This document shows positions 1 through 61,666 of a stretch of 64,000 nt of DNA, piece by piece. The notes under the pieces were generated by a model. That model saw only the letters and a list, made by a program, of their open reading frames with translations, did no database searches and had not been told where the DNA came from. Both the position numbers and the translations under genes were made by a program. How positions within the stretch are numbered: position 1 is the first letter of the stretch; every line of letters begins with the position of its first letter. Origin of the DNA: an uncultured Clostridia bacterium (GTDB taxonomy: Bacteria; Bacillota; Clostridia; TANB77; CAG-508); NCBI GenBank assembly GCA_947632745.1, contig CANRQH010000001.1, positions 17,386 to 81,385 on the forward strand, given 5' to 3'.

Positions 1-3000
1 TATATACAAATCCATTTGTCTTATTTCTTTCTTTTATATTATCACTTGCTACTGAGTAATTTACTTCACCTAATGATTTATACCACTCTAACATTTCTTG
101 TGCTGATTTATATGAATCATCTGTTATTTTTCCAGCATAATAATCTGTTAATGTGTTTATTGCGCTTTGTATTTCTTCATTATTTGGATTTTCGAATGCT
201 GTTTTCTTCATTGCATTTTTGGTAGCTTCTGATGTTACTATTGTAGATTTATAATCTTTTAAATTAATATCTACTTCGTTTCCACTAGAATCAACCATTT
301 TTTGTGTTCCATCTCCATAGGTGTATTTTAAGTAATAATATCCTGGCTCAACTCCTGGAATTTCATAATATCCATTTTGATCTGTATATACTCCCTCTTG
401 TGTTCCGGCTATATTTTTGTCTGGATATCTATATACTGGATTTCCTGTGCTATCTACTAACTCTACTTTTACAGCTTTTGCTCTATTTTGTTCATTATCA
501 TCTATTATACCATTTCCTAGATTTTCTTTTTCAGATTCAGCTGATTTTGTATCTTCATATACTGTTCCTGTTAACTTTCTTTCATCTCCTAAGGCCATTT
601 TTAAGTATAATGCATCATCATCATCTGTTTTTATAACTGATTTATGTGTATAGAATTTATTTTGAGCTGCCTCTTCTGCTGTTATATATCCTTTATTTAC
701 TGCTGTCTGTAATGCATTTTGGTCTTCATTCCATACATTGTCTATTCTTAAATAATCATGATAAGCTTTTGAATCTACTTTTGATGCTTCTTTATCATCT
801 TCTCCATTTTTTATAGATTCTCCACTTAAAATTCTTTCTAATGCTGGCTCTTTTACTTTAAATTGTATATATGAATTTATTGTATTTCCACCAATAATAC
901 CATTTTTATATACACTATTGTTGTCATTTACACTATAGTTTGCTGTTCCGTTTCCTAAATTTGACCATAATGCAAAATCTGTAGAGTCTTCATTATTTTC
1001 GTTATTACATAAATCATATCTGTTTGTATCATATAAGTTTGTTAATGAATTTAAGAATAATTTTTCTTCTCTATATACTTTTGGTATATTTAGAGTTGTT
1101 GTATTTGTTACACTTATTTTGTATACTACATATACTTGTAGTTTTCCTGCATTATTCCAGCTGTCTTTCATACTATATGCTATATCACTTGGATATATTG
1201 CATATCTGTTGTAACTATCTTTTGTATTTTGTATATTTACTCTTGGTACATATTTTGAATTAATGTCTGTTGCTTCTCCATATACATATGTATATGTGTA
1301 TCCATTTAATTTTGCTTTAATATAAGCTAATTCTTCTGATACCTCATATGTTGGATCTACTACATCTACTAATCCTAGGTTAATATATTTTACTATAAAG
1401 TCTCTTTCATCATAATATCCTGTTATTGGAGTTTCTTTTAAATCGCTTGATGTAGGTGGGTTTTGTGTATCACTACCATATATTTTATTTGCAATTTTTT
1501 TGTTATTTTCTAGAATTGTCTTAGCATCCCACTCACTTGATGTACGGTATGTTACTGCTTCTCCTCTTCCTGTTAACTGATTATCATCTAATTTAACATT
1601 TTCTTCTTGAGCTTTTGAGTTTACTTTAACATCTGTTCCTACAAATGGTGTTACTGTTATATATTCTTTATCATTGTATATGAATTTTACATATCCATTT
1701 GCTAAATCCCAATAATAGATTTCTTCTCCAGAGTCTTTTTTAGTAAATCTATAATGACCTTTGTTTGTTCCATCAGTACTATCTGTTACAGTTGTAGCTA
1801 TTTTTTGATTATTTCCATTATATAGTTCTACTGGTATTCCGCCTAATAATTCATCATAGCTTCCTTCTGTATATACTTCATCTGTTGTTGTGTTCTTTAA
1901 ATTTGATAAATCTTTCCATACAAATCCTTCTAATGCTGCTATTACCTTTTTATTTTTTATTGTTACTTCATATGGAGCATCTCTACCTTGGTCTTTACTT
2001 ATAGTTATTGTTAAATCTTTATTTGTATTATTTGGATCTTTTATTAATACCCAATTTGGATGTTCTGGATCCGCACCATATCCTATTTGTTTTGTTATAT
2101 CATATCCTGTAGGTGCAGCAGTTTCGTATATTTTATAGTCTGCAAAATGTAAGTTTTGTATTGTAACTGTTCCATCTTCTCCTGTTGTAACTTCCATAGC
2201 TTGGTCAGCTGTACTATTCTTATTATATTCACATTTTGTTCCATTAAATGTTACCCATGCTTTTTCTGTTATAGAATATAATTTGAATTTAGCTCCTGCA
2301 AGTGATACTTCATCTTTAACAGAATCCTTCTTTATCAATTTTAAGTCTCCAACAGATCTTTGGTTTTCAAAGTATCCCAATTCAGGTGCCAATGCTGGTT
2401 TGTCTTCAGTATTTTCTTCAGTTACTTCTATATTTCCAAGATATACCCAGTTATTTGCTGCACTTATTTCATCTGTTCTATATCTATCTTGCTCTTCTAA
2501 ATTATAGAATTCATCATCAGAAGATTTTATTTCATAAATTCTATAAGTACCAAAATGTAATCTATCTATTTGTACTTCACCATTACTGTCTGTTATATAT
2601 TGTGTTGCTTTTGTCCAATCATTTATATATTTTGGTAAACTATCTTTTACTTCAGAAACAAATCCTACTTTTCCACCTTTATATCTTGTATCTTGCATTC
2701 TGTATAATACTACTGTTGTTTCTGGTAAATTATCTAATTTCGTATAATCCTCTAAACTTGGACCTTTTTTAATTATTTTCATACTTCCAGTAGCAGTTTT
2801 TTGGTTTTCAAAATATCCTAATTCTGGCGCAATAGCTGGATTTTTCTCAGTATTTTCTTCTTTTACTTCTATATCTCCAAGATATACCCAGTTATTTGCT
2901 GCACTTATTTCATCTGCTCTATATTTATCTTGGTCTTCTAAATTATAGTTTATATCATCAGAAGATTTTATCTCATAAATTCTATAAGTACCTACGTACA

Positions 3001-5521
3001 ATCTATTTATTTGTACTTCACCATTACTGTCTGTTATATATTGTGTTGCTTTTGTCCAGTCATTTGCATAGTTTGGTAAACCATCTTTTACTTCAGTAAC
3101 AAATCCTGCTTTTTCACCATTAAATCTTGAATCTTTCATTCTGTATAATACTACTGTTGTTTCTGGTAAGTTAACTAATTTCTTATCATCCTCTACACTT
3201 GGACCTTTTTTAATTATTTTCATACTTCCAATAGGAGTTTTTTGGTTTTCAAAGTATCCTAATTCTGGCGCAATAGCCGGATTTTTTTCAATATTTTCTT
3301 CTTTTACTTCTATATCTCCAAGATATACCCAATTATTTTGTGCACTTATTTCATCTGCTCTATATCCATCTTGGTCCTCTAAATGATAGTATACATCATC
3401 AGAAGATTTTATCTCATAAATTCTATAAGTACCTAAATACAATCTATCTATTTGTACTTCACCTTTACTGTCTGTTATATATTGTGTTGCTTTTGTCCAG
3501 TCATTTGTATAGTTTGGTAAACCATCTTTTACTTCATTAACAAATCCTGCTTTTTCACCATTAAATCTTGAATCTTTCACTCTGTATAATAATACTGTTG
3601 TTTCTGGTAAGTTAACTAATTCCTCATCATCCTCTAAACTTGGACCTTTTTTAATTATTTTCATACTTCCAATAGGAGTTTTTTGGTTTTCAAAGTATCC
3701 TAATTCTGGCGCAATAGCCGGATTTTTTTCAATATTTTCTTCTTTTACTTCTATATCTCCAAGATATACCCAATTATTTTGTGCACTTATTTCATCTGCT
3801 CTATATCCATCTTGGTCCTCTAAATGATAGTATACATCATCAGAAGATTTTATCTCATAAATTCTATAAGTACCTACATACAATCTATCTATTTGTACTT
3901 GGCCTTTACTGTTTGTTATATATTGTGTTGCTTTTGTCCAGTCATTTGTATAGTTTGGTAAATTATCTTTTACTTCATTAACAAATCCTGATTTTTCACC
4001 ATTAAATCTTGAATCTTTCACTCTGTATAATAATACTGTTGTTTCTGGTAAGTTAACTAATTTCTCATTATCCTTTAAACTTGGACCTTTTTTAATTATT
4101 TTCATACTTCCAGTATTTGTTTCATCTACTATATATAAATTTACATCTGTAAAGTTAGTATTTAATCCAAGGCTTAAATTAGTAGAATTAGAAATCGTAA
4201 CTGTTCCATTATTTGTTGTTATTTCTGCTTTTATAATTCTTGATTTATATTCTCCATTTTCTCCTATTGATATTTCTGTTAATAAATAATTTCCTGGTTT
4301 TAAACCATATATTTTAATTTCTCCATTTTCATCTGTAGTTAATGGTTTAGGTTCTCCGTAATATTCTACAAATCCTTGATTATCAATACCTACATAAGGA
4401 CCATTTCCAAGTAATTTTAAATTAAATGTTACTCCTTCTAATTTAGATTTTTTCTCTACTACATTTCCACTGTCATCTTTTATTCCTCCAGCTTTTTTTA
4501 TAGTTAAGTTTACTTTATTATTGTCTTCTACTGGTATTTCACATGAAGCAGAATTATCTTCTGTTTTTTCTCCATGCTCGACCTTAATTAATCTCTGTTT
4601 TTCCCCACCAGCATTTAAGAAATATATTTTTGCAATATAAAGTTTTGATTGACCTTTAACATTTACTGTAAGTTTTGTAATTTGAGCATCGATATCTGAA
4701 CAATATATGTAGAATATTTCTCCACTTTTTACTTGATCTAAACTTATAGGTGTAGTTTTATCTTTTGCATATAATTTAAACATATCTGAATTCTTGTCTG
4801 ATTCAATACTATATGTGCTGTTAGTAATATTTCCATTTGCATCTCTTGTGTTATATTCTACATCTATACTTGAAAGTGTAGCATTAAAGTTTACAGAACA
4901 TTGAATATATCCTGAAGAAGACCTTATCGCTTTAGTAATATCTAACGATACAGTACTTTTTGATTTTTTCAAGTCTTCAGCATAGTTTTCAGCAGCAGTA
5001 ATTAATGCATTTGTTGTATTGCTATCCTCTTCACTTCTTTGTGGCCATTTGCTTGGATGTAACGAATGGGTTTTTCCGGAATTTTTTATTTCACTATATG
5101 ATGTATTAAGTGCTACAAAATTATTCCATATACTCCATACAGACTTTTGCCTAATTCCTGCATCTTTAGAAAATCCTTCATAACCATATTTATAATTTTC
5201 TGCACTTAGTATATATGCCATTTCAGCATACAATGGATTGCTTATTTTTTCGTCTTTGTTGCCATTTAACCAACCTGTGTCTCCTTCGATATCTATATAT
5301 CCTTTTACCACATATTCGATATCTCCCATGCTCTGGTACACGTGTCCATTGACATCAGTACAATAAAACTCTTTACTTAGGTCGTGTAGGTTTTTTGAGT
5401 TTACTATTATTTTATCACCTATATTATAAGCAGCATAAGCACTACAAATAGCCGTAATTATTGCAAAAAATGATATAATTAATGTTATTATTACTTTTAA
5501 TATTTTCTTTGAATTACTCAT
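1..5521 (-). CDS. Giant sortase-substrate surface adhesin, partial. The N-terminal ~1840 aa are in the window; the C-terminus lies beyond the window start. It is a paralog of the 10438..16572 gene.
   Basis: The minus-strand reading frame is open from the ATG at 5519-5521 to position 1. No minus-strand ORF with a stop is listed in the track, consistent with the gene running off the edge. An RBS (aaggaggg) lies 8 nt upstream of the ATG. The N-terminus translates as MSNSKKILKVIITLIISFFAIITA..., a signal peptide. Nucleotide similarity to 11.5-16.5 kb is high, and there are about 4 tandem ~441-444-bp repeats at 2455-4230. The antisense ORFs 2896/3340/3781 are near-identical, confirming the periodicity. 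Confidence 0.75.
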   Translation of the reverse strand, partial: MSNSKKILKVIITLIISFFAIITAICSAYAAYNIGDKIIVNSKNLHDLSKEFYCTDVNGHVYQSMGDIEYVVKGYIDIEGDTGWLNGNKDEKISNPLYAEMAYILSAENYKYGYEGFSKDAGIRQKSVWSIWNNFVALNTSYSEIKNSGKTHSLHPSKWPQRSEEDSNTTNALITAAENYAEDLKKSKSTVSLDITKAIRSSSGYIQCSVNFNATLSSIDVEYNTRDANGNITNSTYSIESDKNSDMFKLYAKDKTTPISLDQVKSGEIFYIYCSDIDAQITKLTVNVKGQSKLYIAKIYFLNAGGEKQRLIKVEHGEKTEDNSASCEIPVEDNNKVNLTIKKAGGIKDDSGNVVEKKSKLEGVTFNLKLLGNGPYVGIDNQGFVEYYGEPKPLTTDENGEIKIYGLKPGNYLLTEISIGENGEYKSRIIKAEITTNNGTVTISNSTNLSLGLNTNFTDVNLYIVDETNTGSMKIIKKGPSLKDNEKLVNLPETTVLLYRVKDSRFNGEKSGFVNEVKDNLPNYTNDWTKATQYITNSKGQVQIDRLYVGTYRIYEIKSSDDVYYHLEDQDGYRADEISAQNNWVYLGDIEVKEENIEKNPAIAPELGYFENQKTPIGSMKIIKKGPSLEDDEELVNLPETTVLLYRVKDSRFNGEKAGFVNEVKDGLPNYTNDWTKATQYITDSKGEVQIDRLYLGTYRIYEIKSSDDVYYHLEDQDGYRADEISAQNNWVYLGDIEVKEENIEKNPAIAPELGYFENQKTPIGSMKIIKKGPSVEDDKKLVNLPETTVVLYRMKDSRFNGEKAGFVTEVKDGLPNYANDWTKATQYITDSNGEVQINRLYVGTYRIYEIKSSDDINYNLEDQDKYRADEISAANNWVYLGDIEVKEENTEKNPAIAPELGYFENQKTATGSMKIIKKGPSLEDYTKLDNLPETTVVLYRMQDTRYKGGKVGFVSEVKDSLPKYINDWTKATQYITDSNGEVQIDRLHFGTYRIYEIKSSDDEFYNLEEQDRYRTDEISAANNWVYLGNIEVTEENTEDKPALAPELGYFENQRSVGDLKLIKKDSVKDEVSLAGAKFKLYSITEKAWVTFNGTKCEYNKNSTADQAMEVTTGEDGTVTIQNLHFADYKIYETAAPTGYDITKQIGYGADPEHPNWVLIKDPNNTNKDLTITISKDQGRDAPYEVTIKNKKVIAALEGFVWKDLSNLKNTTTDEVYTEGSYDELLGGIPVELYNGNNQKIATTVTDSTDGTNKGHYRFTKKDSGEEIYYWDLANGYVKFIYNDKEYITVTPFVGTDVKVNSKAQEENVKLDDNQLTGRGEAVTYRTSSEWDAKTILENNKKIANKIYGSDTQNPPTSSDLKETPITGYYDERDFIVKYINLGLVDVVDPTYEVSEELAYIKAKLNGYTYTYVYGEATDINSKYVPRVNIQNTKDSYNRYAIYPSDIAYSMKDSWNNAGKLQVYVVYKISVTNTTTLNIPKVYREEKLFLNSLTNLYDTNRYDLCNNENNEDSTDFALWSNLGNGTANYSVNDNNSVYKNGIIGGNTINSYIQFKVKEPALERILSGESIKNGEDDKEASKVDSKAYHDYLRIDNVWNEDQNALQTAVNKGYITAEEAAQNKFYTHKSVIKTDDDDALYLKMALGDERKLTGTVYEDTKSAESEKENLGNGIIDDNEQNRAKAVKVELVDSTGNPVYRYPDKNIAGTQEGVYTDQNGYYEIPGVEPGYYYLKYTYGDGTQKMVDSSGNEVDINLKDYKSTIVTSEATKNAMKKTAFENPNNEEIQSAINTLTDYYAGKITDDSYKSAQEMLEWYKSLGEVNYSVASDNIKERNKTNGFVY
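2455..4230 (-). repeat. Intragenic tandem repeats, about 4 × 441-444 bp, encoding Cna-B-like ~147-aa modules inside the partial adhesin gene.
   Basis: Near-identical spurious plus-strand ORFs at 2386, 2896, 3340 and 3781 are spaced 441-444 bp apart. Sequence blocks such as 'ttggttttcaaagtatcctaattctggcgcaatagc' recur. Confidence 0.7.
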
Positions 5522-5539
5522 TGTTATCCCTCCTTTCTT

Positions 5540-8500
5540 CTAAAATTTTATACTTTTCTTTAATATTTTTCTTCCAATTATATAAGCTCCAGCTGTTATA
5601 ATTGCCATTAATGATAATGTTATTGCAACAAAACTTATTGCTCCACCTGTTTTTACACTTATAATTAAATCGCTTGAACTCATATCATCTTCTGATTTTT
5701 GTTTATTTCCTGGTGTAGAATCTTTGTCTTTTACATTTAATGAGTTATAATCTTCAGCTATTTCTGAAGTGTTGTTTACTAGTCCTGTATTTGTTTCTGT
5801 CATTGTTTTTGTTAAAACTAATGTCAATTCTTTTGTTTCTCCTGGCTCTATTTTTGTATTTGATAAACTATTTGAGTATAGATATTCACCTGATTGATAC
5901 CAGTTTGAATTTAACTCAGAATTAAATGATAAATCTGTTGGTTTGTAGTCTACTATATTTCTTGCATATCCTGCAATTTCTCCATTGTTTTTTACACTTA
6001 TTTTATATTCTACTATTACTGTTGAACCACTTAATTCTTTTGCTTTAATGTCTACTTTTGCAAGTTTTACATTATCATAATTTGTAGCTTCAGTTCCTGC
6101 ATTATTTGTTACTGTAACTTTACTTATTGTTTTTGAAAGTTCTAAATCAAATACTTTTGCTTCTGCTAATCCTATATCTATATTTGTTAAACTTCCATCA
6201 TTTATAACTAATGTATCTGTTGAAGAAACATTTTGCTCTCTACCGTCTATATTCATTGTTACATTTTCAACATCTGAGTTTCTATTTTCTTGAATTCCAT
6301 CTGCTTTATATGTTGTTAAAATGTATTTTTCTGTATCATACTCGAATATTACTACATAATTGCCATTTGAAACTTTTGTTAGTGAATAAAATCCATTATC
6401 TAAAGTTTCTGTGCTATTTATTTTTTTATTATTTTTTAAGTCAAATAATGTTACTTTTATTCCACCTAAAGTTTGTTCATTTGAATCTCTTTGACCATTT
6501 CCATTTTCATCAAACCATGCTGTTCCTGATATTGCGTTTGTTCCTTGATTATCCGCATTTTCATTTGGATTGCGTTCGTCGTTTTCTCCATTGTTTCCCT
6601 CATTATTTTCTCCAGGATTTACTTCATTGTTTTCTCCAGGATTTACTTCATTATTTTTTCCAGGATTTACTTCATTGTTTTCTCCAGGCTCTACTTCATT
6701 ATTTACTTCATTTTTTTCTCCAGGATCTACTTCATTATTTACTTCATTTTTTTCTCCAGAACTTACTTCATTATTATCCACGTTATTTTCTTCAGTATTA
6801 TTTTCATCATCTTTATTGTCATTATCATCATTATTATCATCTGTTTCTTCGTCTGGTTCTTTACTTTCTTCTGGGTCTGCTTTTATTTCTGGATCTTGTA
6901 TATTATAATTATTTTGGTTATCTCCTAACAAAATGTGGTCTACTTCACTTGATGTTCCTATCCATTTTTCATTATCATATACTTTTGATATACTTTTTAA
7001 TTGTACATCATCAGCATTTATTAATTCTTTATTTGTTATAGTTGAAACTTGAATGTTTAGAGTTTTATTTGCTTGTATTGCATTATTAATATATATAGTA
7101 CAAGCATTTTCTATGTCTGTTCCACCTTGTTCTAATGAATATTCTGTATTGTTACCATCTATTGTAATATTTTTTACCTTTAATTGACTTGATAATTGTT
7201 GTTCAATTTTTAAGTTATTTATATCTTCATTTCCAACATTTTTTAACACAATATTATAGTCAACACCTTCTCCAGGTCTTATTGCATTTCCTTCATTGCT
7301 TGATGTCATTTCTATAGATACACTTTTATCTATAAATTTTTCAACCACTTGATTTGAACGATATTTGTTATTTGCAGTTACACTTAAATTTGCCTCAAAC
7401 CTTTCATCTAAATTTTCATATACATATAATCCCAATTTAGAAGTAGAATTAGCTGGTATGCTTTTTATTATAAAGCTATTATTTTCTACATTTTCATCTT
7501 TTATATTATTTGAGTCAAAATTTTCAAATCCTTCTATTTCAAATACTGTAAAGTTTCCTTTAGCATTTATTTGTACATTTTTTAGTTCTCTATTTGTTAA
7601 ATTGCTAATTTCCATTAAGTATTCATAGTCGGTGTTAGATTTTAAATACATAGAACTTCTATTTATTAGTGTTAATCTTACTTTTAAATCTGCATTTTCA
7701 ATCTTATGTTTTATTTCGGTATTAATTTGTTGTCCATTATAATTTACAGAAATATTATTTACAAGTTCTGCATTTCCTTCAACCTTATCATTTATCATAA
7801 CCTCATATGAAACTGTTTTTTGTTTGCCTGCTGGTAGATTTTCTACCACCTCTTGCATACTATTTTCTTCTAATATTGTGTATTTATCGTCAAATTCACC
7901 CTCAACCGCGTCTTCTTCTCCATCTGGGCCTTCACTAGCTTCAGGGGCTTTCTTGGTGTATTTTACATATTTTGTATTTTCTGGAATATTTCCTATTATA
8001 TCTACTCGATTAGCAGTTGCTCCTCCTTTATTTGCTACTGTTACTGCATATGTAACAACTTCTCCACTATGTATTGTTTCTCCCTCTGGTATTTGGACTC
8101 CACCTACATATGCTTTTACAGTTGTTTCTATTTTTGCTTCTCCTGTAACTTCTGTTTGTCCTTGTTCTGCTGTTTGGTTTTGCTCTGCTAAATTTCTTTC
8201 CTCTTCTTCTTTTTGTTTTAAAGTCTCTTCATCTATTCCATCTATTGTTATTGGTACTTGTACTTCTCCGTTATTTTCTATGCTTGTAGCTATTTCATTT
8301 GTATAATTTAATGTAATGTTTTCTTCTCCATCTAATGCTAATTCATCTAATTCCATATCTGCATATATTATTAATGTAGTTCCTTCTATTGCTTCAGCAT
8401 TATATTTTGTTTGTGTTCCTTTTAATGCTACATTCATTACATAATTTTCGTTTTCTTTTGATATTTTAGCACCATTTAATTCTAGTCCATTTTCATATAG

Positions 8501-10246: not shown

Positions 10247-10303
10247 TTTAAATTCCTCCTTTTATACAATCATTGCATTTAGGCATAAACGCCCACTATA
10301 CTT

Positions 10304-10332
10304 ATTATATAACTTTTTGTCGTTTTTTGCAA
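10304..10332 (-). promoter_or_regulatory. Sigma-A-type promoter for the 1568-aa adhesin gene (and probably the partial gene downstream).
   Basis: The minus strand reads TTGCAA, a 17-nt spacer, then TATAAT. The -35 is at 10327-10332 and the -10 at 10304-10309. This is about 55 nt upstream of the RBS and ATG at 10246. Confidence 0.55.
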
Positions 10333-10391
10333 TAGATTTTACCAAATTTGTAACTTTTTATGTAATTATATACATTTTTTTATATAAAAAC

Positions 10392-10430
10392 AAAAAATCT
10401 AATTTATAAAAATTTAGATTTTTTGTTTTA
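10392..10430. terminator. Rho-independent terminator between the adhesin genes, potentially bidirectional.
   Basis: An 11-bp perfect stem (aaaaaatctaa / ttagatttttt) with an 11-nt loop, flanked by T-runs on both strands. It lies just downstream of the 2044-aa gene stop at 10438. Confidence 0.55.
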
Positions 10431-10437
10431 TAATAAT

Positions 10438-13400: not shown

Positions 13401-16400
13401 TCCATACATATCCCTCTAAAGAAGCTACTATTTTTTTATTTTCTATTGCTACTTCATAAGGAGCTTTTGCACCTTGATTTTTATTCAATGTTACAGTGCT
13501 TAATTTTACCCAATTTGGACATTTAGAGTCTGAACCATATCCTGTTTGTTTTGTTATATCATATCCTTTTGGAGCTTCTGTTTCATATATTGTATAATTT
13601 CCATAGCATAAGTTCTCTATTGTAACAGTTCCGTCACTCTTTGTTGTAAATTCATATCCCTTTTCTTTCGAGCTGATAGTACCTCCATCTTGTGTTACCC
13701 ATGCATTTTCTACATTAGAGTATAATTTAAATTTAGCACCTGCAAGTGTCATATCTATCTTAGAATCTTTTTTTATTATTTTTAAACTAGCAACTGTTAA
13801 CTCATTTTGAAAATATCCTCCACTTGGTAAAGCTGGTTTACTTTCGGTATTATCTGCTGAAACCTCTATTTCACCTAAATATACCCAACCATTTTGCTTA
13901 CTTATATTATCTTTTCCATATCCTGATTGTTCACTTAATTTATAAAATCTATTATCTGAAGATTTAATTTCATAAATTTTATACGTTCCTATATTTAGGT
14001 TATCTACTTGAAATTCACCATTATTGTTTGTTGTAAATGTTGTACTACCTTCTCCTGTTGTATTATTTTTGTAACTTATTGTTCCATCTTGAGCTTTTGT
14101 TACAAATCCATATTTTGTGCCATTATAATCTCTTTCATCTCTAAATAGCTTCATTTGTGTACCTGCTAGATTTACCTGTCCACTATGAGTAGATTTATCA
14201 GGTCCTTTTTTTACTATTTTGATACTTCCAACTGTCAGTTTATTTTCAAAATATCCTTTACTCGGTAAAGCTGGATTACTTTCGGTATTAGCTGTTGAAA
14301 CCTTTATTTCACCTAAATATACCCAACCATTTTGCTTACTTATATCATCTTTTCCATATCCTGGTTGTTCACTTAATTTATAAAATCCTTCATCTGAAGA
14401 TTTAATTTCATAAATTTTATATGTTCCTGTATCTAGGTTATCTACTTGAAATTCACCTTTAGCGTCTGTTGTAAATGTTGTACCACCATCTCCTGTTGTA
14501 TTATTTTTGTAACTTATTGTTCCATCTGAAGCTTTAACTACAAATCCATGGTTTGAATCACTTTCATTTCTAAATAACTTCATTTGTGTACCTGAAAGTC
14601 CAACTTGTTTGTTATGTGAAACTTTGTCAGGTCCTTTTTTTACTATTTTGATACTTCCAACTGTCAGTTTATTTTCAAAATATTCCTTACTCGGTAAAGC
14701 TGGATTACTTTTGGTATTTTCTGATGAAACCTCTATTTTACCTAAATATACCCAACCATTTTGCTTACTTATATCATCTTTTCCATATCCTGTTTGTCCA
14801 CTTAATTTATAAAAATGTTCATCTGGTGATTTAATCTCATAAATTCTATATGTTCCTGTATTTAATTTATCTACCTGGAACTCTCCATTACTATCTGTTG
14901 TAAATTTTGTTCCATTTACTCCTGTTGTATTATTTTGATAACTTATTGTTCCATCTTGAGCTCTAGTTACAAATCCATATTTCGTTTGATTAAAATCTTT
15001 TTCATCTCTAAATAACATCATTTGTGCATTCTCAAGATTTATTTGTTGATTATGATTATATATATAAGGTCCTTTCTTTATAACTTTTAAGCTTCCTGTA
15101 TTTGCATTATCTACTAAGTCTAAATCTACATTTACAAAGTCAGTATTTAATTCAAGAGTTAAGTAAGCAGGATTATTTTCATTAATTGTAACTGTTCCAT
15201 TATTTGATGTTATCGTTGCTTTTATAATTTCCGGTCTATATTCTTCATTTTCTCCTATTGATGTTTCTATTAGCATATATTTTCCTGTTTTTAAACCATA
15301 TATTTTAATTTCTCCATTTTCATTTGTAGTTAATGGTTGAGGATCTGTGTAATATTTTACAAAACCTTGATTATCAATACCTACATAAGAACCTCCTCCA
15401 AGTAATTTTAAATTAAATGTTACTCCTTTTAACGCATCTTTTGTTTTCATTACACTTCCATTATTAACTTTTGCTCCACCAGCTTTTTTTATTGTTAAAT
15501 TTATTTTATTACCATCTTCTACCGGTATTTCTATTTTTCCAGCTTTAAATTCTTCTTCATGTATTTCCGCATATACTAACCTTTGCTTAGTATTACCTGC
15601 AGATTTTAACATATATAAATTTGCCCAATATCTGTTTGCATATTTAGACGGAACTTCCATATTAATCTTAGTAATTTGATAATTAGAATATGGACAATAT
15701 ACATAAATTTTGTCAAAACGTTCTATGTCTTCTATATTATTTATTGGTGTCTTTTTATCTTCTTTGTATAATTTAAATATATCGCTATTGTTATTTGTAT
15801 CTTTTGTTATTTTAAAAGTATTATCACGTTTATTACCACTTGCATCTATAGTTGTATATGATATATTTATTTCTTTAATACAAGCAGTTCTACCAAAATA
15901 CACTGAAAATTCAATATATCCATCGCTATCTCTCTTAGCTGCATCCGCCTTTACACCATTAACATACCAGTCTGTATTTACTCCACTTTCATTCCACGTA
16001 TCAAGTATGAAATCTGTTAAATCATCATCTTTTTCTAGTTTTGACTCTTCAAGATCGTCTCTATTTACTTTTTGTTCCCAACAGTTATAACACATACACC
16101 AATTTGTGTTTTCATGTTTTATATCCAAAGAAATAGTATAGTCCGAATACATCCCATTCCAATACTTCCAAAGTGCCTTTTGTCTTTCAGAACCTCCTTC
16201 TTTTTGCCATCCCCATCCCCAATTTAAATTTTCTTTTGGTTCTGGAAAACAAAGGTATGCTAGCATGTTATTCGTATTCATATCCGGCCACGTATAATCT
16301 GTCGTTCTATCTTTCATATGTAGCCTTCTTTTATCAGAATGTATCTCCATTATTCCTTCTACTTTATAATTAGTATCTGTAGTCAAACTTCCAGCATGAT

Positions 16401-16572
16401 TAATACAATAAAGATTAGGTTGACCTTTTAAGTCATTCTCATTAATAATCAATTCTTGACCTATCCATGTAGGTATATCAAAAGCTTGTACTTTGCCTTT
16501 AGTTAGAAATAATAATAATATAGCTAATGTAAATGTAAATATTATTTTCATAAAATTTTTTGAATTTTTCAC
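10438..16572 (-). CDS. Giant sortase-anchored adhesin, 2044 aa. It has a signal peptide, an N-terminal putative thioester-like domain, about 4 tandem Cna-B-type repeats and SdrD-B-like domains. The C-terminal sorting signal is MPSTGE followed by a TM segment and a KKKEDE tail.
   Basis: GTG start with an RBS (aaaggag). Tandem repeats of the form 'VKKGPDK..TQMKLFR..GFVTKAQDGTISYKNNTTG..TTFTTD..GEFQVDNL.TGTYKIYEIKSSD' are present. The classic Cna-B signature 'GNYTIYETEAPKGYD' is present. 'LEGYVWNDLANGK...GITVELYDGNG...DNKGYYKF' fits an SdrD-B-like domain. The N-terminus contains 'LYCINHAGS' and 'SERQKALWKYW'. The C-terminus is 'VMPSTGEDRSNKNIIIITIAISALGIGIILIMKIVLKKKEDE'. Confidence 0.8.
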   Translation of the reverse strand: MKNSKNFMKIIFTFTLAILLLFLTKGKVQAFDIPTWIGQELIINENDLKGQPNLYCINHAGSLTTDTNYKVEGIMEIHSDKRRLHMKDRTTDYTWPDMNTNNMLAYLCFPEPKENLNWGWGWQKEGGSERQKALWKYWNGMYSDYTISLDIKHENTNWCMCYNCWEQKVNRDDLEESKLEKDDDLTDFILDTWNESGVNTDWYVNGVKADAAKRDSDGYIEFSVYFGRTACIKEINISYTTIDASGNKRDNTFKITKDTNNNSDIFKLYKEDKKTPINNIEDIERFDKIYVYCPYSNYQITKINMEVPSKYANRYWANLYMLKSAGNTKQRLVYAEIHEEEFKAGKIEIPVEDGNKINLTIKKAGGAKVNNGSVMKTKDALKGVTFNLKLLGGGSYVGIDNQGFVKYYTDPQPLTTNENGEIKIYGLKTGKYMLIETSIGENEEYRPEIIKATITSNNGTVTINENNPAYLTLELNTDFVNVDLDLVDNANTGSLKVIKKGPYIYNHNQQINLENAQMMLFRDEKDFNQTKYGFVTRAQDGTISYQNNTTGVNGTKFTTDSNGEFQVDKLNTGTYRIYEIKSPDEHFYKLSGQTGYGKDDISKQNGWVYLGKIEVSSENTKSNPALPSKEYFENKLTVGSIKIVKKGPDKVSHNKQVGLSGTQMKLFRNESDSNHGFVVKASDGTISYKNNTTGDGGTTFTTDAKGEFQVDNLDTGTYKIYEIKSSDEGFYKLSEQPGYGKDDISKQNGWVYLGEIKVSTANTESNPALPSKGYFENKLTVGSIKIVKKGPDKSTHSGQVNLAGTQMKLFRDERDYNGTKYGFVTKAQDGTISYKNNTTGEGSTTFTTNNNGEFQVDNLNIGTYKIYEIKSSDNRFYKLSEQSGYGKDNISKQNGWVYLGEIEVSADNTESKPALPSGGYFQNELTVASLKIIKKDSKIDMTLAGAKFKLYSNVENAWVTQDGGTISSKEKGYEFTTKSDGTVTIENLCYGNYTIYETEAPKGYDITKQTGYGSDSKCPNWVKLSTVTLNKNQGAKAPYEVAIENKKIVASLEGYVWNDLANGKNAMTDELYINGSKDKLLKGITVELYDGNGTNIATTTTDNKGYYKFTKKNKNASGDIYYWDLANGYVKFIYNDKAYITVTPFVGRDVKINSKAQEENVKLDDNALTGTGEAVTYRTPNKWDINAILENNKKIANKIYGNDTKNPPTSNELKETPITGYYDERDYTVKNINLGLVDVVDPTYTISEELAYIKVKLNGYTYTYIYGEATDINSNYVPKVNVQNTKDSYNRYAIYPCDIAYSMKDRWTNSGKLQVYVVYKIDITNTTALNLPKVYREEKLFLNSLTNEYDSNRYDLCNNENNTDSTDFALWSNSGNGTASYSINNNNSVYKNGLTGGETIRSYIQFKIKEPALERILSGESIRTKEDDKEPSIAKSMGYHDYIRQDNVWKENKDKLQETVNKRYANSVNEKYYTHKSVIKPGEDSALCLKISLGDDRKLTGTVYEDTKAPGSGNENLGNGVIDGNEKNRAKAVKVELVDRSGNPVYRYPDKNASGTQNAVYTNNSGYYEFVGVVPGYYYIKYTYGDGTQKMVDLGSGGNVDINLRDYKSTIVTSNVAKNAMKKTSFEKQNNAEIQNAITTLTNYYAGRITNDSYKSAQELLEWYKSSDGGDYSIASDNIMERAKTNGFVYNEDGSIYNGGTKVSSDDGYILDGSGNKMVIHSYTPMIGISIENDTQIFGSSEKERTENVHKNSYNKMNLGIIKETPQDLKVEKKITNVKLANAQGTSLVSSNPKQGISRYLSDLDGKTAGGSKYARLEIEKESLYGSSLETTYEVSISNNSYEDYIEEQSSPNYGWYFKYGEKVAGSQLKKITVKEVIDELDEKYEYDKLPEKITETKITNTGGRIVTENKLTVTPEKNVTETYDEKTQTKHVHVKVTGWDSITTRESVTMSYVSKVLYGNEMDDSSYINDARITQLNLDNLTTLSKEKAWGADYHSSTTLTVMPSTGEDRSNKNIIIITIAISALGIGIILIMKIVLKKKEDE
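13690..15100 (-). repeat. Intragenic tandem repeats, about 3-4 × ~430 bp, encoding the Cna-B-like modules of the 2044-aa adhesin.
   Basis: Recurring blocks such as 'tttactattttgatacttccaactgtcagtttattttcaaaatatcc...ctcggtaaagctggattactttcggtatt' occur at about 13.78, 14.21 and 14.64 kb. Confidence 0.65.
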
Positions 16573-16589
16573 CTTTATTTCTCCTTTCT

Positions 16590-19500
16590 TTAAAATTTTA
16601 TAAATGTATTTATTATCCTTTTTTTAATTAGATATGCCACTAATACTATTATTACTAACATTGATATCATTATGAAAATAAAGTTTATAACAGCACCTGT
16701 CTTTACACTTATAATTAAATCACATGACCCCATATCATCTTCTGATTTTTGTTTATTTCCTACAGTAGAGTCTATGTCTTTTACATTTAGTGAATTGTAA
16801 TCTTCTGTTATTTCTGCTGTGTTGTTTACTAATCCTGTATTTGTTTCTGTCATTGTTTTTGTTAATACTAATGTTACTTCTTTTGTCTCTCCTGGCTCTA
16901 TTTTTGTATTTGACAAAGCTTTTGAATATAGAGTATTTCCTGACTGATACCAATTTGAATTTAACTCAGAGTTAAATGCTAAATCCACTGGCTTATAATC
17001 TGCTATATTTTTTGCATATCCTGCTATTTCTCCTGTATTTGTTACTCTTATTTTATATTCTACAACTACTGTTGAACCACTTAAATTTTTTGCTTTTATA
17101 TCTACTTTTGCAAGTTTTACATTATCGTAATTTGTAACTGTTGTTCCTGCTGAATTAGCTACTGTTACTTTACTTATTGTTTTTGAAAGTTCTAAATCAA
17201 ATGTTTTTGCTTCTACTAAACCTATATCTATATTAGTTAAATTATTTCCACTTATAGTTAATGTATCTGTTGATGCAACATTTTGTTCTTGTCCATTTAT
17301 ATTTAGTGTAACATTTTCTACATCTGAGTTTCTACTATCCTGAACTCCATCTGCATGATATGAAGTTAATATATATTTTTCTTTATCATATTCAAATATT
17401 GCAATATATCTACCATTTTGAATTTGTGATAGTGAATATGTTCCATTACTAGAAGTTACTCCTGTTGTTATTTCATTATTTGTATCTATATCAATTAAAG
17501 AAACTTGTATTCCTTCCAAATTTTTTTCATTTGAATCTCTTTGTCCATCTTCATTTTCATCAAACCATGCTGTACCTGAAATTACATATGTATCTTGCTT
17601 TTCACCATTACCTCCATTTGGGTTATCTTTATCATCATTTCCATTATCCCCATTTGGGTTATCTTTATCATCATTTGGGTTATTATCATCACCTTGTCCT
17701 TCATTGCCGCTTCCGCCTTCATCTCCGCCGTCTCCTTCATCTCCGCCGTCTCCTGGATTTTCACTATCTCCTCCTGGAATTGTAGGTATTTCTGGATCAG
17801 GAACAAATGGCTCTCTTTCTTCACCAACTAATATATGTGTAACTTCATTTGATGTTCCTAATAACATATAATCATCATATATATTTGCTATATTTTTTAC
17901 TTGTTGCTTTTCTGCATAAATCATATCATCTGGTACAGATGCTTGTACATTAACATTTATTGTTGTTTCTATTGGTAATGGATACTCTACTTCTATAATC
18001 CAATTTTCATCTCTATCTAAATAACTTTCATATTCTACATCAGTTTCATCAACTGTAATTTTTTCTATATTTAGGACACCTGTCATTTGTTGTTCTATTT
18101 TAAAACGTTTTATATCATCATTTCCCTCATTTTTTATTACCATATTATAATTAACTTTGTCTCCAGCTCGTATTTCAGCCCCCTCATTTTCAGATGACAT
18201 AGTTATAGAAGCTCTTATGTCTTTTATATCTTCTACAATTTGATATGAGCGATATTTATTATTTGCAACTGCTTCAACATATGCTTTGCTTCCTTCTCCT
18301 TTATTAAGTTGCATTTGGAATGTAAATTTCTTAGTTTCATTTTTTTGTATTTCACTAATTACAAAATTACCATCATCTCCTATTGGTATTTCATCAAATG
18401 AATCATAAATTAGTAAATTGCTTCTAAGCTCTCCTTCTCCTATATTTATTGTTACATCATTTAAAGTATTATTACTTAAATTTTGTACTTCTAACATATA
18501 CATATAAAAGCTTTCAGCTTTACTTTTCATTTCTACTCTGTCCATCATTATTACACTTACTTTTAAATCTGCTTTTTCTATTTTATGGTTTATACTTTTT
18601 CTTTCTTCTAAATTGTCATACTGTACAGTTATATTATTTGTTAAATCTGTATCAGTTGCAATGTCTGAATTTAACATAATTTCATATTTATACTTTACAG
18701 TTTGTCCAACTTGAACATTTTCTAAAGTTGTAGATGGTGTTCTGTCGTTAATTTCTACAAATTTATCGTCTCTACCGCTTCCTACATATCCACCGCCTTC
18801 TTCATCTTCTTTTGGTGCTAATTTTGTAAATTCTACATATTTAGTATTTGCTGGCACACTTCCTGTTACTGTTAATGCATTTATTGTTTCTGCTCCTGTG
18901 TTTTCTACTGTTACTTCATATGTTACAACTTCTCCACTATATATTTTTCCTCCTTCTGGTATTTCATCTCCTCCGACATAAGCTTTTACAGTAGTTGCTA
19001 CTTGTTTTTGTCCTGGTACTGGATCTGAAATGGTTGGTATATTTTCTTTTTGTTGTAACTGTTGTTCTTCTACTTGAACTCCTCCTTCTACCTTAATTGG
19101 AACTTGAGTTGTTCCATTGTCTAAATATTCTGTTGCTATTTCATTTGTATAATTTAAAGTTATATTTTCATCGCTATCTACTGTTGATTTGTCTAATTCT
19201 AGGTTAGCATATATTATTAAAGTTGTTCCTTCTATTACTTCTGTGTTATATGAATTTTGAGTTCCAGAAAGAGACACATTCATTATATAATTTTCATTTT
19301 CTTTTGTTATTGTCGCCTGATTTAAACCTAATCCATTTCCATATAGTAATCTACATTTTGGTTCAATAACCTTTGTAACTTCTTTTGGCAATGTTACTCT
19401 TATTGTTGGATTTTGATATAAGTCTTTGCTTTCATCATTATTTTTTAATGCTACTGTTATTTTTACATTTTTATTTTGTTCTATTGATGATAATTTTGTT

Positions 19501-21095
19501 ACATTTACTTTTAAGTCTGCTTCTGATGATGTATTTTTTAATTCTATTCTTGATTCTTTTGTATTATTTTCTTTTGAATCATAACTTCCACTTATTGTTT
19601 CTTTTATATTTGTTAATATATTTATTTGTTCTCTTGTGTATCCACTATTTAATATAGCCTTTTTGTTTTCTACATTTAATGTTCCTATTTTTATTGGTTT
19701 ACTTGTTATTATTTCTATTTTACTTGTATTTTCAGTTATTATTATATTTCCATTTTCATCTGCTTGAGCTTCTTTTGTTATATTTGCTATTACATTTCCT
19801 GCTTCATCTTTTATTGTTATATATCCTTCTTCGCCAAATATTTTTATAAATTCATCTTTGTTTATTTTTGTTTCTTTATATATAGTATTTGCTTCAAATT
19901 CATTATCTCCTACTAAATATGTTGCTTTATTGGCTTTTAAAGATATTGTATTTGCTATATCTAAAAAGTCTACATTTATTTTATTTTTCTCTGTATATTC
20001 TCTTTCTTCTCCTGTATATATTCTTCCTTTATATATACCGTCTTCATTATTTGTTAATGAATATGATACTATTCCATCTTTCTCTTTATCTATATGAACA
20101 TTAGCTGAGTTTGATAATTCTTTATTGTCATAAGTATTTATTTTGCTATTTACTACTATTTCTTTATTTGTTATGTTTTCATTTTTGTCTAATATATATG
20201 TTACAACTATTTCGTCTACTGCATTTTTACTCCAATTTATACTATTTTTGTTTTCATTTAAAAGTTTTATTGTTAAATCTTGATTTTCTTTATTATATAT
20301 ATAATTTCCTTGACCAAATTCAATATTTTTATTTGTTCCTGCTGTACTTCTTGCATGTACTCTTACTTCTTGTACATTTTCTATTGTATTTAATTTTATT
20401 TCTGTATTTTTTATAGGATAATTATTGTTAGTAACTCTGCTTCCTATTAATATTTGTACTACTCTTTTTTCTTCTCCATTTATGTTATATATACAATTTG
20501 TTAAGATTCCTGAACTTATTTGAGCTTTTATTTCTTCATTTGATTTCCATTTTATTTCTACTACTGATGCACCCTTTATATCTATATATTTGTCTTTTTC
20601 TGCACTTTTACTATTTACATACTGTCCTTGTAACATTACTTCTGTTTTAGAATTTAACATTGTTTCTGTTATTGTTTCTTCTTTTATTGCTGATATTTTT
20701 AATTTTATTGTTTCTGTGCTTCCCGCATTTATTTGGTTTAATGTTACTTGGTTACCAGATATTGAAGATATTGTTGGACTTAATATTTCTTCACTTATTT
20801 TAAAGTTGCTATTATTTAGAAGTATACTTCCATTAAAATATCCCTCATTTTTTACAGACAAATCTACATACAAATATTCTTCTTTGTCTATATCCCTTTC
20901 TATTGTTTCAATTTTTTCTCCATTTTCATCCACAAAATATGCTGTGAACTCTATATTTGAACTATTTGTTTTTACCACGTCTATTGCATATGAAATTACA
21001 GATGCCCCAACAAATAAAACATCTGAGATTACAAGCATAAATATTATTAAAACTGCTGTGATTTTACTAACTAAATTATTTTTTAAAATGTTCAT
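16590..21095 (-). CDS. Cell-wall-anchored surface protein, 1501 aa, a paralog of the 5540..10246 gene with DUF11-like and SdrD-B-like domains. The acidic linker is of the GDGGDEG type. The sorting signal is SVKTGA followed by a TM segment and a KKR tail.
   Basis: Full ORF with an RBS (aagaggagga). Only 17 nt separate it from the downstream 2044-aa gene, suggesting translational coupling in one operon. The protein aligns along its whole length with the 1568-aa protein. This includes a ~300-aa block that is about 100% identical (NKELSNSANVHIDKEKDGIVSYSL ... KITVALKNNDESKDLYQNPT). Confidence 0.8.
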   Translation of the reverse strand: MNILKNNLVSKITAVLIIFMLVISDVLFVGASVISYAIDVVKTNSSNIEFTAYFVDENGEKIETIERDIDKEEYLYVDLSVKNEGYFNGSILLNNSNFKISEEILSPTISSISGNQVTLNQINAGSTETIKLKISAIKEETITETMLNSKTEVMLQGQYVNSKSAEKDKYIDIKGASVVEIKWKSNEEIKAQISSGILTNCIYNINGEEKRVVQILIGSRVTNNNYPIKNTEIKLNTIENVQEVRVHARSTAGTNKNIEFGQGNYIYNKENQDLTIKLLNENKNSINWSKNAVDEIVVTYILDKNENITNKEIVVNSKINTYDNKELSNSANVHIDKEKDGIVSYSLTNNEDGIYKGRIYTGEEREYTEKNKINVDFLDIANTISLKANKATYLVGDNEFEANTIYKETKINKDEFIKIFGEEGYITIKDEAGNVIANITKEAQADENGNIIITENTSKIEIITSKPIKIGTLNVENKKAILNSGYTREQINILTNIKETISGSYDSKENNTKESRIELKNTSSEADLKVNVTKLSSIEQNKNVKITVALKNNDESKDLYQNPTIRVTLPKEVTKVIEPKCRLLYGNGLGLNQATITKENENYIMNVSLSGTQNSYNTEVIEGTTLIIYANLELDKSTVDSDENITLNYTNEIATEYLDNGTTQVPIKVEGGVQVEEQQLQQKENIPTISDPVPGQKQVATTVKAYVGGDEIPEGGKIYSGEVVTYEVTVENTGAETINALTVTGSVPANTKYVEFTKLAPKEDEEGGGYVGSGRDDKFVEINDRTPSTTLENVQVGQTVKYKYEIMLNSDIATDTDLTNNITVQYDNLEERKSINHKIEKADLKVSVIMMDRVEMKSKAESFYMYMLEVQNLSNNTLNDVTINIGEGELRSNLLIYDSFDEIPIGDDGNFVISEIQKNETKKFTFQMQLNKGEGSKAYVEAVANNKYRSYQIVEDIKDIRASITMSSENEGAEIRAGDKVNYNMVIKNEGNDDIKRFKIEQQMTGVLNIEKITVDETDVEYESYLDRDENWIIEVEYPLPIETTINVNVQASVPDDMIYAEKQQVKNIANIYDDYMLLGTSNEVTHILVGEEREPFVPDPEIPTIPGGDSENPGDGGDEGDGGDEGGSGNEGQGDDNNPNDDKDNPNGDNGNDDKDNPNGGNGEKQDTYVISGTAWFDENEDGQRDSNEKNLEGIQVSLIDIDTNNEITTGVTSSNGTYSLSQIQNGRYIAIFEYDKEKYILTSYHADGVQDSRNSDVENVTLNINGQEQNVASTDTLTISGNNLTNIDIGLVEAKTFDLELSKTISKVTVANSAGTTVTNYDNVKLAKVDIKAKNLSGSTVVVEYKIRVTNTGEIAGYAKNIADYKPVDLAFNSELNSNWYQSGNTLYSKALSNTKIEPGETKEVTLVLTKTMTETNTGLVNNTAEITEDYNSLNVKDIDSTVGNKQKSEDDMGSCDLIISVKTGAVINFIFIMISMLVIIVLVAYLIKKRIINTFIKF

Positions 21096-21115
21096 ATAGA
21101 TTCCTCCTCTTTTCT

Positions 21116-21145
21116 ATTATAAGAAAATTTATTTTTTTAAGTCAA
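21116..21145 (-). promoter_or_regulatory. Strong sigma-A-type promoter for the adhesin operon (1501-aa and 2044-aa genes).
   Basis: The minus strand reads TTGACT (plus 21140-21145), a 17-18-nt spacer, then TATAAT (plus 21116-21121). About 20 nt further downstream is the RBS aagaggagga and the ATG at 21095. The 5' UTR is short, so there is no room for a riboswitch. Confidence 0.6.
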
Positions 21146-21372
21146 TACTATCTATTCTCTGTTATTTTTTATTTTACATTTTTTATTTCAAATATACTTA
21201 CGGAAGCTTTTTTTGAATCTCTTAGATTGAGATTTATTAATTTTTTATTACAATTTTATTACATTTTTCTTTTTTATTTTCGTAATCCTTAAGGATTGTA
21301 GACTTTGCTTTATTTTCTATTCACACATATTTTTTTTGTTAATATAATATACTACTAAGAGAGGTGAATTTT

Positions 21373-21531: not shown

Positions 21532-21577
21532 CTATGAATAAGTATTATTTTAAAAAAATTAAGAAAGGATGATTTAT

Positions 21578-25114: not shown

Positions 25115-25145
25115 TATTTCACCTTCTTTTGGTTAAATGTAAAAG

Positions 25146-25680: not shown

Positions 25681-25711
25681 TTACTTTCTACTTTCCTTTC
25701 AAAAATTAGAA

Positions 25712-26527: not shown

Positions 26528-26616
26528 AATAATTTATCCTTTCTTTTTTTACTTTTTATATATATTTTTTATAGGTTACTTCGTATTCCCTTTATCTATA
26601 AACGTTTTTTCTGTAA

Positions 26617-27659
<1,043 letters not shown>

Positions 27660-60221: not shown

Positions 60222-60329
60222 AATATTCACTCCTACTATTAGCATATTTTTAAAGTCTATATATTCGTAGATAAATTTTGAAAATAGAAATAAATATTTA
60301 GCAGAAATTTTATTAAATAATACAAGTTG

Positions 60330-60938: not shown

Positions 60939-61054
60939 AAACTTAATTCTCCTTTTTTTATAAATTTAAAATTAATATTTTTATTAAATAATATATTTTA
61001 ATAAAAAATTAATTTTCTTTTACATTATTATTCAGGAAATTAAATTTATATACA

Positions 61055-61666
61055 TTAATTTTCTATTATTTCTATTCCTTGAATACATCTTCTATATTCA
61101 GGCTCATTTTCTACACATGTTATTAATGTTATTTTATTTTCATCAGATTTTTCTAAATAACTCCAATCTGAATTTTCAATAATTTCTATTTTATTTACTG
61201 TATAAATTTTTTTAAAGTCTTTGTATGTGTAAATAATTTTGTCATCCATTTTTAGTTTTTTTAAATCTTTAAAAAAATTTTTTTCATATCCTCTATTATG
61301 TGCAGCTAATCCTATGTTACCATCTTGTAAATTTGTATCTGTAAAATGACCTACTTTTGTGTTTAAAATATCTAAATTTGTCCCCTCTGCAATGGGTGCA
61401 ATTAAGTCAATAGCTGGAATCTCTATGTACCATTCCCCTAAGTCTTCGACCGATTTTTCTGCATCCTTTTCCTCGTTTTTATGGTCCTCTATAGTTGATA
61501 TTACTTCTTGAATTTTTTCTGTTGGATTTTTTTCTTTTTCGAAAAATAGAAAATTTAAAATTGAAAAAATTACAATTGTTATAATTAAACTAATAATGTT
61601 TATACTTTTATTTGTGTATAACATAATTTTAAAATATATTGAAATAAATCTATATAATAATATCAC
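61055..61666 (-). CDS. Sortase-family transpeptidase (small SrtA/SrtD-like class).
   Basis: An N-terminal TM segment, the active-site His context 'IGLAAHNRGY', the catalytic Cys 'ITLITCV', and the conserved Arg 'EPEYRR'. Confidence 0.75.
   Translation of the reverse strand: MILLYRFISIYFKIMLYTNKSINIISLIITIVIFSILNFLFFEKEKNPTEKIQEVISTIEDHKNEEKDAEKSVEDLGEWYIEIPAIDLIAPIAEGTNLDILNTKVGHFTDTNLQDGNIGLAAHNRGYEKNFFKDLKKLKMDDKIIYTYKDFKKIYTVNKIEIIENSDWSYLEKSDENKITLITCVENEPEYRRCIQGIEIIEN

Follow-up and report, generated by a model that had tools for sequence, protein, structure and literature searches.

Only two residues are universal in thioester domains (TEDs), the bonding Cys and the bonding Gln. The Cys lies on strand C in a [YFL]C-Φ-ζ motif, where Φ is hydrophobic and ζ hydrophilic, and the Gln lies on a late strand in a weak ΦQζΦΦ motif; a third motif, TQxxΦW, sits on helix α-2, where its Trp and Gln lie packed next to the bond, which can form without them (PMC6194298). 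Class II TEDs have an inserted β-sandwich, placed ahead of a hairpin by which the Gln comes back to the N-terminal lobe (PMC6194298). The class II TED of pLS20, which is experimentally supported, carries YCID and YQRLM, with Cys68 and Gln256 (PMC8092201). Here we describe an array of giant surface-protein genes that occupies the first 21 kb of a 64,000-nucleotide (nt) stretch of DNA from an uncultured Clostridia bacterium (this whole stretch is called the window below). Two of the four encoded proteins begin with a head domain that may be a very divergent relative of the class II TEDs.

The array comprises four open reading frames (ORFs), given here in the order in which they would be transcribed:

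16590..21095, minus strand: gene D, 1501 amino acids (aa), a D-type fibre protein
10438..16572, minus strand: gene C, 2044 aa with a GTG start, a C-type adhesin
5540..10246, minus strand: gene B, 1568 aa, a paralogue of D
1..5521, minus strand: gene A, at least 1840 aa with its 3′ end beyond the window edge, a paralogue of C

The ORF calls agree with the original prediction on the sizes of these four giant genes and on their common strand, and matches to Pfam stalk families (see below) bear out its description of a tandem array of giant Gram-positive surface adhesins with isopeptide-type stalk domains. The genes do not, however, encode four equivalent adhesins, as had been proposed. Two protein types are present, and the array is a tandem duplication of a two-gene module in which a D-type gene is followed by a C-type gene (D-C, B-A). 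The 21-kb region is free of frame breaks. We have high confidence in two conclusions: the genes encode giant surface fibre proteins in duplicate, and the C-type one is an adhesin carrying a distal head. The bodies of C and A are 60% identical overall, with regional values of 44-86% (81-86% at aa 1300-1600). Their heads are only 26-38% identical and form the most diverged part of the two paralogues.

The heads and their motifs are located as follows:

15514..16482, minus strand: head of C (aa 31-353), a candidate divergent class II-like thioester domain
16399..16413, minus strand: LYCIN of C (aa 54-58), with Cys56, which is invariant in 8/8 family heads
16168..16185, minus strand: RQKALW of C (aa 130-135), where a predicted helix begins, the TQxxΦW counterpart
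15574..15588, minus strand: KQRLV of C (aa 329-333), on a predicted strand, with Gln330, which is invariant in 8/8 heads
4523..5431, minus strand: head of A (aa 31-333)
5354..5368, minus strand: FYCTD of A (aa 52-56), with Cys54
5135..5152, minus strand: RQKSVW of A (aa 124-129)
4586..4600, minus strand: KQRLI of A, with Gln309

A Cys motif and a TQxxΦW-like motif had been noticed earlier in an N-terminal domain shared by C and A. Both motifs are indeed there, although the glutamine of the second is Gln131 rather than Gln128; this glutamine follows the Cys by 75 residues in C and by 71 in A. To these two heads we added six relatives, three of which (L026_C, L028_C and L032_C) were reached via genes downstream of D-type homologues, giving a family of eight. 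A profile of the C and A heads, run exhaustively with HMMER against 1.84 billion representative proteins, returned five matches, one of them spurious (a repeat protein) and the others C itself and three relatives. A word-indexed homologue search with the C head, or with an alignment of five heads, gave no match, and C itself was also missed.

The eight heads are 12-31% identical to C, and the sole invariant residues are Gly38, Cys56, Tyr69, Trp135, Tyr290 and Gln330. Around the Cys, the family members read LYCIN, FYCTD, LYCTD, LYCIQ, LYCVN, LFCVE, IFCME and IYCID; around the late Gln, they read KQRLV, KQRLI, IQRLI, TQRLI, KQNLI, FQNLI, LQNML and QQTLL. The pairs in two of the relatives are FCVE/FQNLI (L026_C) and YCID/QQTLL (L028_C). 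In the xQxxΦW motif, Trp135 is invariant and the position of Gln131 is taken by Asn in L032_C. The secondary structure predicted for the C head consists of strands, helices (one starting at the RQ), a β-sandwich and a terminal hairpin that holds the Gln, with the Cys in a predicted strand at residues 24-30 of the head. Hence the [YFL]C-hydrophobic-hydrophilic feature of TEDs is present on a (predicted) strand in this family, and a late ΦQζΦΦ Gln after a β-sandwich is present at the sequence level. No His is invariant among the eight heads, which argues against a Cys-His hydrolase. A Cys protease or transglutaminase head was likewise rejected, as the eight heads have no invariant His or Asp triad. 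A match of NF038340 (SAR2788_fam) to the N/S/T-rich linker of two heads is noise, scoring 18-19 bits against a cutoff of 50.

For comparison with known TEDs, we built reference alignments from plasmid records, comprising 11 class II TEDs of the pLS20 type and 9 of the SaTIE type. The pLS20-type set matches the solved SaTIE-TED 6fx6 (E value 2e-5) and is thus a genuine reference, and the two sets match each other at P values of 1e-12 to 4e-16 (hhalign). When five of the heads were aligned to the 11 pLS20-type TEDs, the local P value was 0.0016 over the FY...QRL region, and global alignment, in which Cys falls on Cys and QRL on QRL, scored 27.4 (P = 3.5e-5). A block-shuffle null for this global score yielded 8.2 +/- 4.9 (z ~3.9), and 1/150 shuffles reached the real value. 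Global alignment of the five heads to all 20 class II TEDs gave P = 1.8e-4, with three motifs aligned. Matches of the reference-TED hidden Markov models (HMMs) to L025 were set aside as an artefact, caused by the start of a SpaA domain having been included in the reference alignment. We regard the profile similarity of the head to validated class II TEDs (P values of 3.5e-5 to 1e-2) as no more than suggestive.

In overall layout, the C-type proteins resemble the class II thioester/isopeptide/ester (TIE) adhesins (BaTIE 6FWV, SaTIE 6FX6, EfmTIE86 and TIE-pLS20), with the same succession of signal peptide, head, CnaB/SpaA stalk and anchor. In the head, as in class II TEDs, the invariant Cys of [YF]C-Φ-ζ comes first; a GY/GG patch, an xQxxΦW helix and a β-sandwich follow, and the invariant Gln of ΦQ[RNT]ΦΦ comes last (compare YQRLM of pLS20). 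The predicted order of the secondary-structure elements is also alike. Unlike class II TEDs, it has no TED or TED_2 match, and its P values of 3.5e-5 to 1e-2 compare with ≤1e-12 between true subfamilies. The C-type proteins are also 3-4 times larger than the class II TIE proteins, and their genes are chromosomal and always come after a D-type partner, rather than being carried on conjugative plasmids.

C starts with a signal peptide (read from the translation), which is followed by the head (aa 31-353) and by a stalk of six SpaA domains, SdrD_B and CarboxypepD_reg. The stalk of A contains SpaA, SdrD_B and CarboxypepD_reg as in C. Pfam scores in C are 158 bits for SpaA (six stretches) and 68 bits for SdrD_B, and in A 140 bits for SpaA. 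Tandem stalk domains of the SpaA/CnaB, SdrD_B and CLIPPER families (for D and B, see below) are present between head and anchor. Of the Cna-B and SdrD-B stalk repeats predicted originally, the SdrD_B domains were recovered and CnaB-type domains appear as SpaA, but Pfam Cna_B itself has no match in the array proteins.

The sequences relevant to anchoring are these:

10441..10563, minus strand: sorting signal of C, with MPSTGE (10549-10563), a hydrophobic stretch and KKKEDE
16593..16709, minus strand: C-terminal anchor of D, with SVKTGA (SVKTG at 16695-16709), a hydrophobic stretch and KKR
5543..5659, minus strand: C-terminal anchor of B, with SVKTGG (SVKTG at 5645-5659), a hydrophobic stretch and a basic tail
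61055..61666, minus strand: sortase gene, 203 aa with a TLITC active-site motif, the sole sortase seen in the window, 40 kb away

D, C and B each have a signal peptide and, after the motif, a hydrophobic stretch and a basic tail, as read from the translations. The MPSTG of C lies 41 residues from the C-terminal end, and TIGR01167 scores it at 14.9 bits against a cutoff of 15.9. C-type orthologues end in MPSTGE, SPPTGE, TPNTGE, KPTGE, TPPTGS or TPSTGN tails, and the tail of one of them (P0006) reaches 15.1 bits with PF00746, for which the cutoff is 20. Such [MST]PxTGE-hydrophobic-KKK tails resemble the SPKTG, PPKTG and SPSTG signals of the Clostridioides difficile SrtB substrates (CD2831, CD3392), and the (S/P)PXTG class is cut by SrtB (PMC4155245). 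From the tail sequences, it is reasonable to regard the C-type protein as a sortase substrate. In the D-type family, the tail is [SG][VIL]xTG[AGSP] followed by a hydrophobic stretch and a basic tail; those of D and B lack the proline and match neither LPXTG nor any other anchor model. The resemblance here is to the proline-less NVQTG of C. difficile CbpA. Because NVQTG is not cleaved by SrtB in vitro (PMC4155245), sortase anchoring of the D-type protein seems doubtful. Of the four sortase substrates counted originally, C, whose MPSTGE falls just under the TIGR01167 cutoff, is thus a plausible one, and D and B, with SVKTG, are doubtful. Beyond generic stalk domains, the C. difficile substrates have no homology to the array proteins.

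The window's sortase is recognized by PF04203 (E value 7e-22) and TIGR01076 (75 bits), and the nearest class model is that of class C, at 71.5 bits, far under its cutoff of 160. It is a candidate for the enzyme that anchors the array proteins. Close neighbours on the minus strand (59868-61666) are a gene for a MazF/PemK toxin (59868-60245) and an ORF of 202 aa that matches DUF4834 just weakly.

In D, the signal peptide (again read from the translation) precedes a conserved N-terminal region of ~660 aa without a Pfam match, after which come DUF11/CLIPPER, DUF7507, a spacer of acidic low-complexity sequence and SdrD_B. Scores for D and B are 27.6-28.5 bits with DUF11 and 44-50 bits with SdrD_B; D additionally scores 29.3 bits with DUF7507 and matches the solved SdrD chain 10ps_A (E value 3e-9). 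DUF11 and DUF7507, recently renamed CLIPPER and CLIPPER_2, have been demonstrated to form stalks of fibrillar adhesins and to carry isopeptide bonds (PMC12617251). D and B share DUF11/CLIPPER and SdrD_B, and D also DUF7507/CLIPPER_2, with the CLIPPER and SdrD-type fibrillar adhesins, whose stalk modules typically carry isopeptide bonds or bind Ca2+. The N-terminal region sets the D-type proteins apart from those adhesins in that it matches no Pfam family. D and B are 62% identical overall, a figure that conceals 87-97% at aa 300-600, 32-48% at aa 700-1250 and 76-85% near the C-terminus, and their acidic spacers differ in length and repeat unit. Such mosaic divergence suggests that the tandem copies have undergone recombination or gene conversion with each other.

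We then looked at the module in relatives. Among 185,579 species-representative genomes there was one relative, 'uncultured Clostridia bacterium Lapin-022__bin12', a metagenome-assembled genome (MAG) from rabbit gut; a metagenome scan gave no match, and an exact look-up of protein C yielded no recorded contig. The N-terminal ~660 aa of the D-type protein have 53 homologous clusters, all from metagenome assemblies or MAGs, and the two that are named are Clostridia. The D-C pair follows radC-mreBCD-PBP2-minC in the closest relative (L001, a rabbit-gut MAG), in L026/L027 and in L030, and in L031 it is fragmented by frameshifts. In L024, L028 and L032 its surroundings differ or are unresolved, while in L029 and L033 the D-type gene alone falls inside the contig. 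L001 has one D-C pair, compared to two in the window. The D-type and C-type proteins may act as partners.

In three relatives, a third giant gene comes after the D-C pair (L026, 19204-23312; L030, 19939-21152; L032, 10051-12310), with products of >1872, 2919 and 3023 aa, respectively. The one in L026 opens with a D-type N-terminus. Those in L030 and L032 hold both CLIPPER and SpaA domains and are possibly fused D+C proteins. The syntenic C-type genes of L030 (14957-19714) and L031 (14962-19734) carry a different head, without [YF]C, xQxxΦW or ΦQxΦΦ. These differing heads suggest that heads may be swapped on a conserved stalk among C-type genes.

The reading of the head that we favour, a very divergent class II-like TED with a bond between Cys56 and Gln330 (Cys54 and Gln309 in A), has in our view a probability of roughly 0.5. 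A number of observations weigh against it. The Pfam models TED (PF08341) and TED_2 (PF20610) match neither C and A nor the six relatives, even at E values up to 10, and no NCBIfam thioester model matches the eight heads (TIGR03934 is presumed to be in that library), which is one of the two outcomes that together were to refute the original prediction. The pLS20 TIE protein itself barely passes the Pfam models (28.8 bits where 27 are needed, and 23.6 where 22 are), which makes their failure to match weak negative evidence. Profile searches of PDB sequences with the head family find no TED. AlphaFold models of the head had a pLDDT of 41 from a two-sequence alignment and 58 from a five-sequence alignment, too low to inform on the fold or on Cys-Gln proximity, and Foldseek, run with the pLDDT-58 model against the PDB, gave only Ig-like or Kir-channel β-sandwich matches. 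With eight heads, the hhalign P values weaken to 0.011 in local and 0.0027 in global alignment; the SaTIE-type TEDs alone give no signal (P = 0.69), and the hhalign probability for the head versus TEDs is just 4-45%. The reference-TED HMMs score the heads at -3 to 6 bits; although this ranks them high among ORF fragments used as a rough background, we do not treat these scores as significant. The T of TQxxΦW is never present in the family, R, V, G or P standing in its place. The Cys-Gln spacing, 274 residues in C, 255 in A and 225-324 across the family, compares with 171-204 in known class II TEDs.

Several of these points would also be expected if the heads were an orphan non-covalent binding domain unrelated to TEDs, in which the Cys, Trp and Gln serve folding, contacts to metal or ligand, or other chemistry. 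No TED-family model or structural match connects the heads to TEDs, the hhalign probabilities stay below 50% and fall as the family profile deepens, and the motifs are short and degenerate; moreover, with five matches in 1.84 billion proteins, there is no bridge sequence to canonical TEDs. We take this to be a genuine possibility, though not one we would expect to hold. It leaves unexplained why the sole invariant residues should be those that a TED needs, in the same order and on matching predicted elements. Nor is the lone invariant extracellular Cys, which has no partner Cys or His, easily fitted to a disulfide or a hydrolase. The global profile alignment, in which the Cys and the Gln each fall on their counterparts and whose score lies at z ~3.9 relative to the block-shuffle null, argues in the same direction, as does the combination of N-terminal head, isopeptide-type stalk and sortase signal, which is the standard TIE layout (PMC6194298, PMC8092201). 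It is unlikely, in our view, that the head belongs to a third, unrecognized structural class of thioester or other Cys-based covalent domain, set in an obligate two-protein D-C fibre; none of the TED models now in use would recognize such a class, whose range would be a small clade of uncultured gut Clostridia. The compact TED originally proposed, with Cys56 bonded to Gln131 of RQKALW (RQKSVW in A) some 72-75 residues on, is very improbable. Both motifs exist and have been conserved in C, A and several relatives, but the TQxxΦW Gln lies beside the bond in solved TEDs, where it is non-bonding and dispensable (PMC6194298), and Gln131 gives way to Asn in L032_C whereas Gln330 is invariant. The Cys-Gln131 spacing would also be shorter than in any known TED; given that RQKALW and RQKSVW correspond to TQxxΦW and not to the bonding site, this apparent shortness ceases to be an issue for a bond to Gln330. 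Equally hard to credit is an arrangement in which sortase assembles D and C into a pilus whose tip adhesin is the C-type protein and whose shaft or base is the D-type protein, rather than each being anchored as a fibre of its own. The tight coupling and conserved pairing of the two genes would suit it, as would a weak likeness to the SpaH/EbpB major-pilin model (31.7 bits, cutoff 95) and the proximity of the window's sortase to the class C model. That sortase, however, is 40 kb off and not assignable to class C (71.5 bits against 160), no sortase gene lies beside the pair in the window or in any syntenic locus examined, proteins of 1500-2000 aa are several times the size of pilins, and the D-type tails lack PxTG.

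The D-type and C-type fibre proteins are predicted to reach the surface of a low-GC gut Clostridia cell by the Sec pathway, and sortase would attach the C-type protein to peptidoglycan through its [MST]PxTG signal. If the head is indeed a class II-like TED, it could work as follows. Cys56, in LYCIN on a strand of the N-terminal lobe, would form an internal thioester with Gln330, in KQRLV on the strand coming back from the inserted β-sandwich. From the RQKALW helix, Trp135 and Gln131 would lie against this bond, like TQxxΦW in solved TEDs. An amine of the ligand would then attack the thioester, leaving the bacterium covalently linked to its target. The heads of C and A have kept the key residues and yet are just 26-38% identical, which fits two ligand specificities; both this divergence and the different head that a relative has at the same position would fit diversification of what the heads bind.

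Signals for expression within the array include the following:

16573..16589, minus strand: D-C spacer of 17 nt, with ribosome-binding site AAAGGAG
5522..5539, minus strand: B-A spacer of 18 nt, with ribosome-binding site AAGGAGGG
21116..21145, minus strand: promoter-like TTGACT-18-TATAAT 5′ of D, with 11/12 consensus matches, in AT-rich DNA
10304..10332, minus strand: promoter-like TTGCAA-17-TATAAT 5′ of B, with 10/12 consensus matches
~10387..10429, minus strand: AT-rich hairpin and T-run just 3′ of the C stop codon (dG -15.1 kcal/mol, z -5.4)

The short gaps of 17-18 nt with ribosome-binding sites that had been described between the genes exist within the modules (D-C and B-A, with GGAG-type sites), but the C-B gap between modules is 191 nt and contains the AT-rich hairpin with its T-run and one of the promoter-like sites. 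From these gaps and the hairpin, the array looks like two bicistronic units (D-C and B-A) rather than one four-gene operon. Hexamers are found at the coordinates given earlier for a strong promoter and an internal one; such sites are, however, no commoner than in shuffles of the AT-rich DNA (8 versus 4.9 expected, and 3 versus 2.8 expected). A terminator had also been claimed. A consensus scan found none, but the hairpin with a T-run directly after C is a probable intrinsic terminator of the D-C unit.

The locus is chromosomal, lying just downstream of radC-mreB-mreC-mreD-PBP2-minC and two small divergent ORFs. The latter (21569-22326, plus strand; 134 and 117 aa, without a Pfam match) lie between minC and D, and ORFs of similar size occupy the position between minC and the D-type gene in most syntenic relatives. 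Within 23275-27656 (minus strand), the mreB, mreD and PBP2 genes are each split by frame changes. The PBP of L001 is split identically, into 282 and 333 aa; genes of the mreB/mreD/PBP2 region are broken also in L029, L031 and L033, and are intact in L026 and L030. Either homopolymer indel errors in the assemblies or real decay may account for these breaks. An alternative genetic code was rejected as an explanation, as the 2044-aa ORF is open in table 11 and the breaks are frame changes.

Elsewhere in the window, 35035-41323 (plus strand) encodes a single-module nonribosomal peptide synthetase of 1407 aa (condensation, AMP-binding and a NAD_binding_4 terminal reductase) and then a 675-aa histidine kinase. 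A VirD4/TraG-type type IV coupling protein of 679 aa is encoded at 46769-48808 (minus strand), amid genes for an ABC-F protein, Tex and a DnaJ-like protein, and may be the remnant of an integrated conjugative element.

Nothing in this locus is categorically new; its interest lies in a possible TED lineage that current models do not see and in the conserved pairing of D-type and C-type genes. These are ordinary giant adhesins with a near-orphan head, possibly derived from a TED. If the head is not a TED, the array is one more example of giant fibrillar adhesins of Gram-positive type whose tip is an orphan. If it is one, the sequence space of TEDs would be wider than now appreciated, admitting R, V or G for the T of TQxxΦW and a larger β-sandwich insert. 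Given that the Gln of TQxxΦW is non-bonding, it also follows that the distance from the Cys to the TQ is not a suitable measure by which to judge TED candidates. Should the head prove to be a functional TED, censuses of covalent adhesins based on HMMs would be missing whole lineages in uncultured gut anaerobes. The D-C pair, placed beside a cell-shape operon and duplicated with diverged heads, is a tractable candidate colonization factor for this clade.

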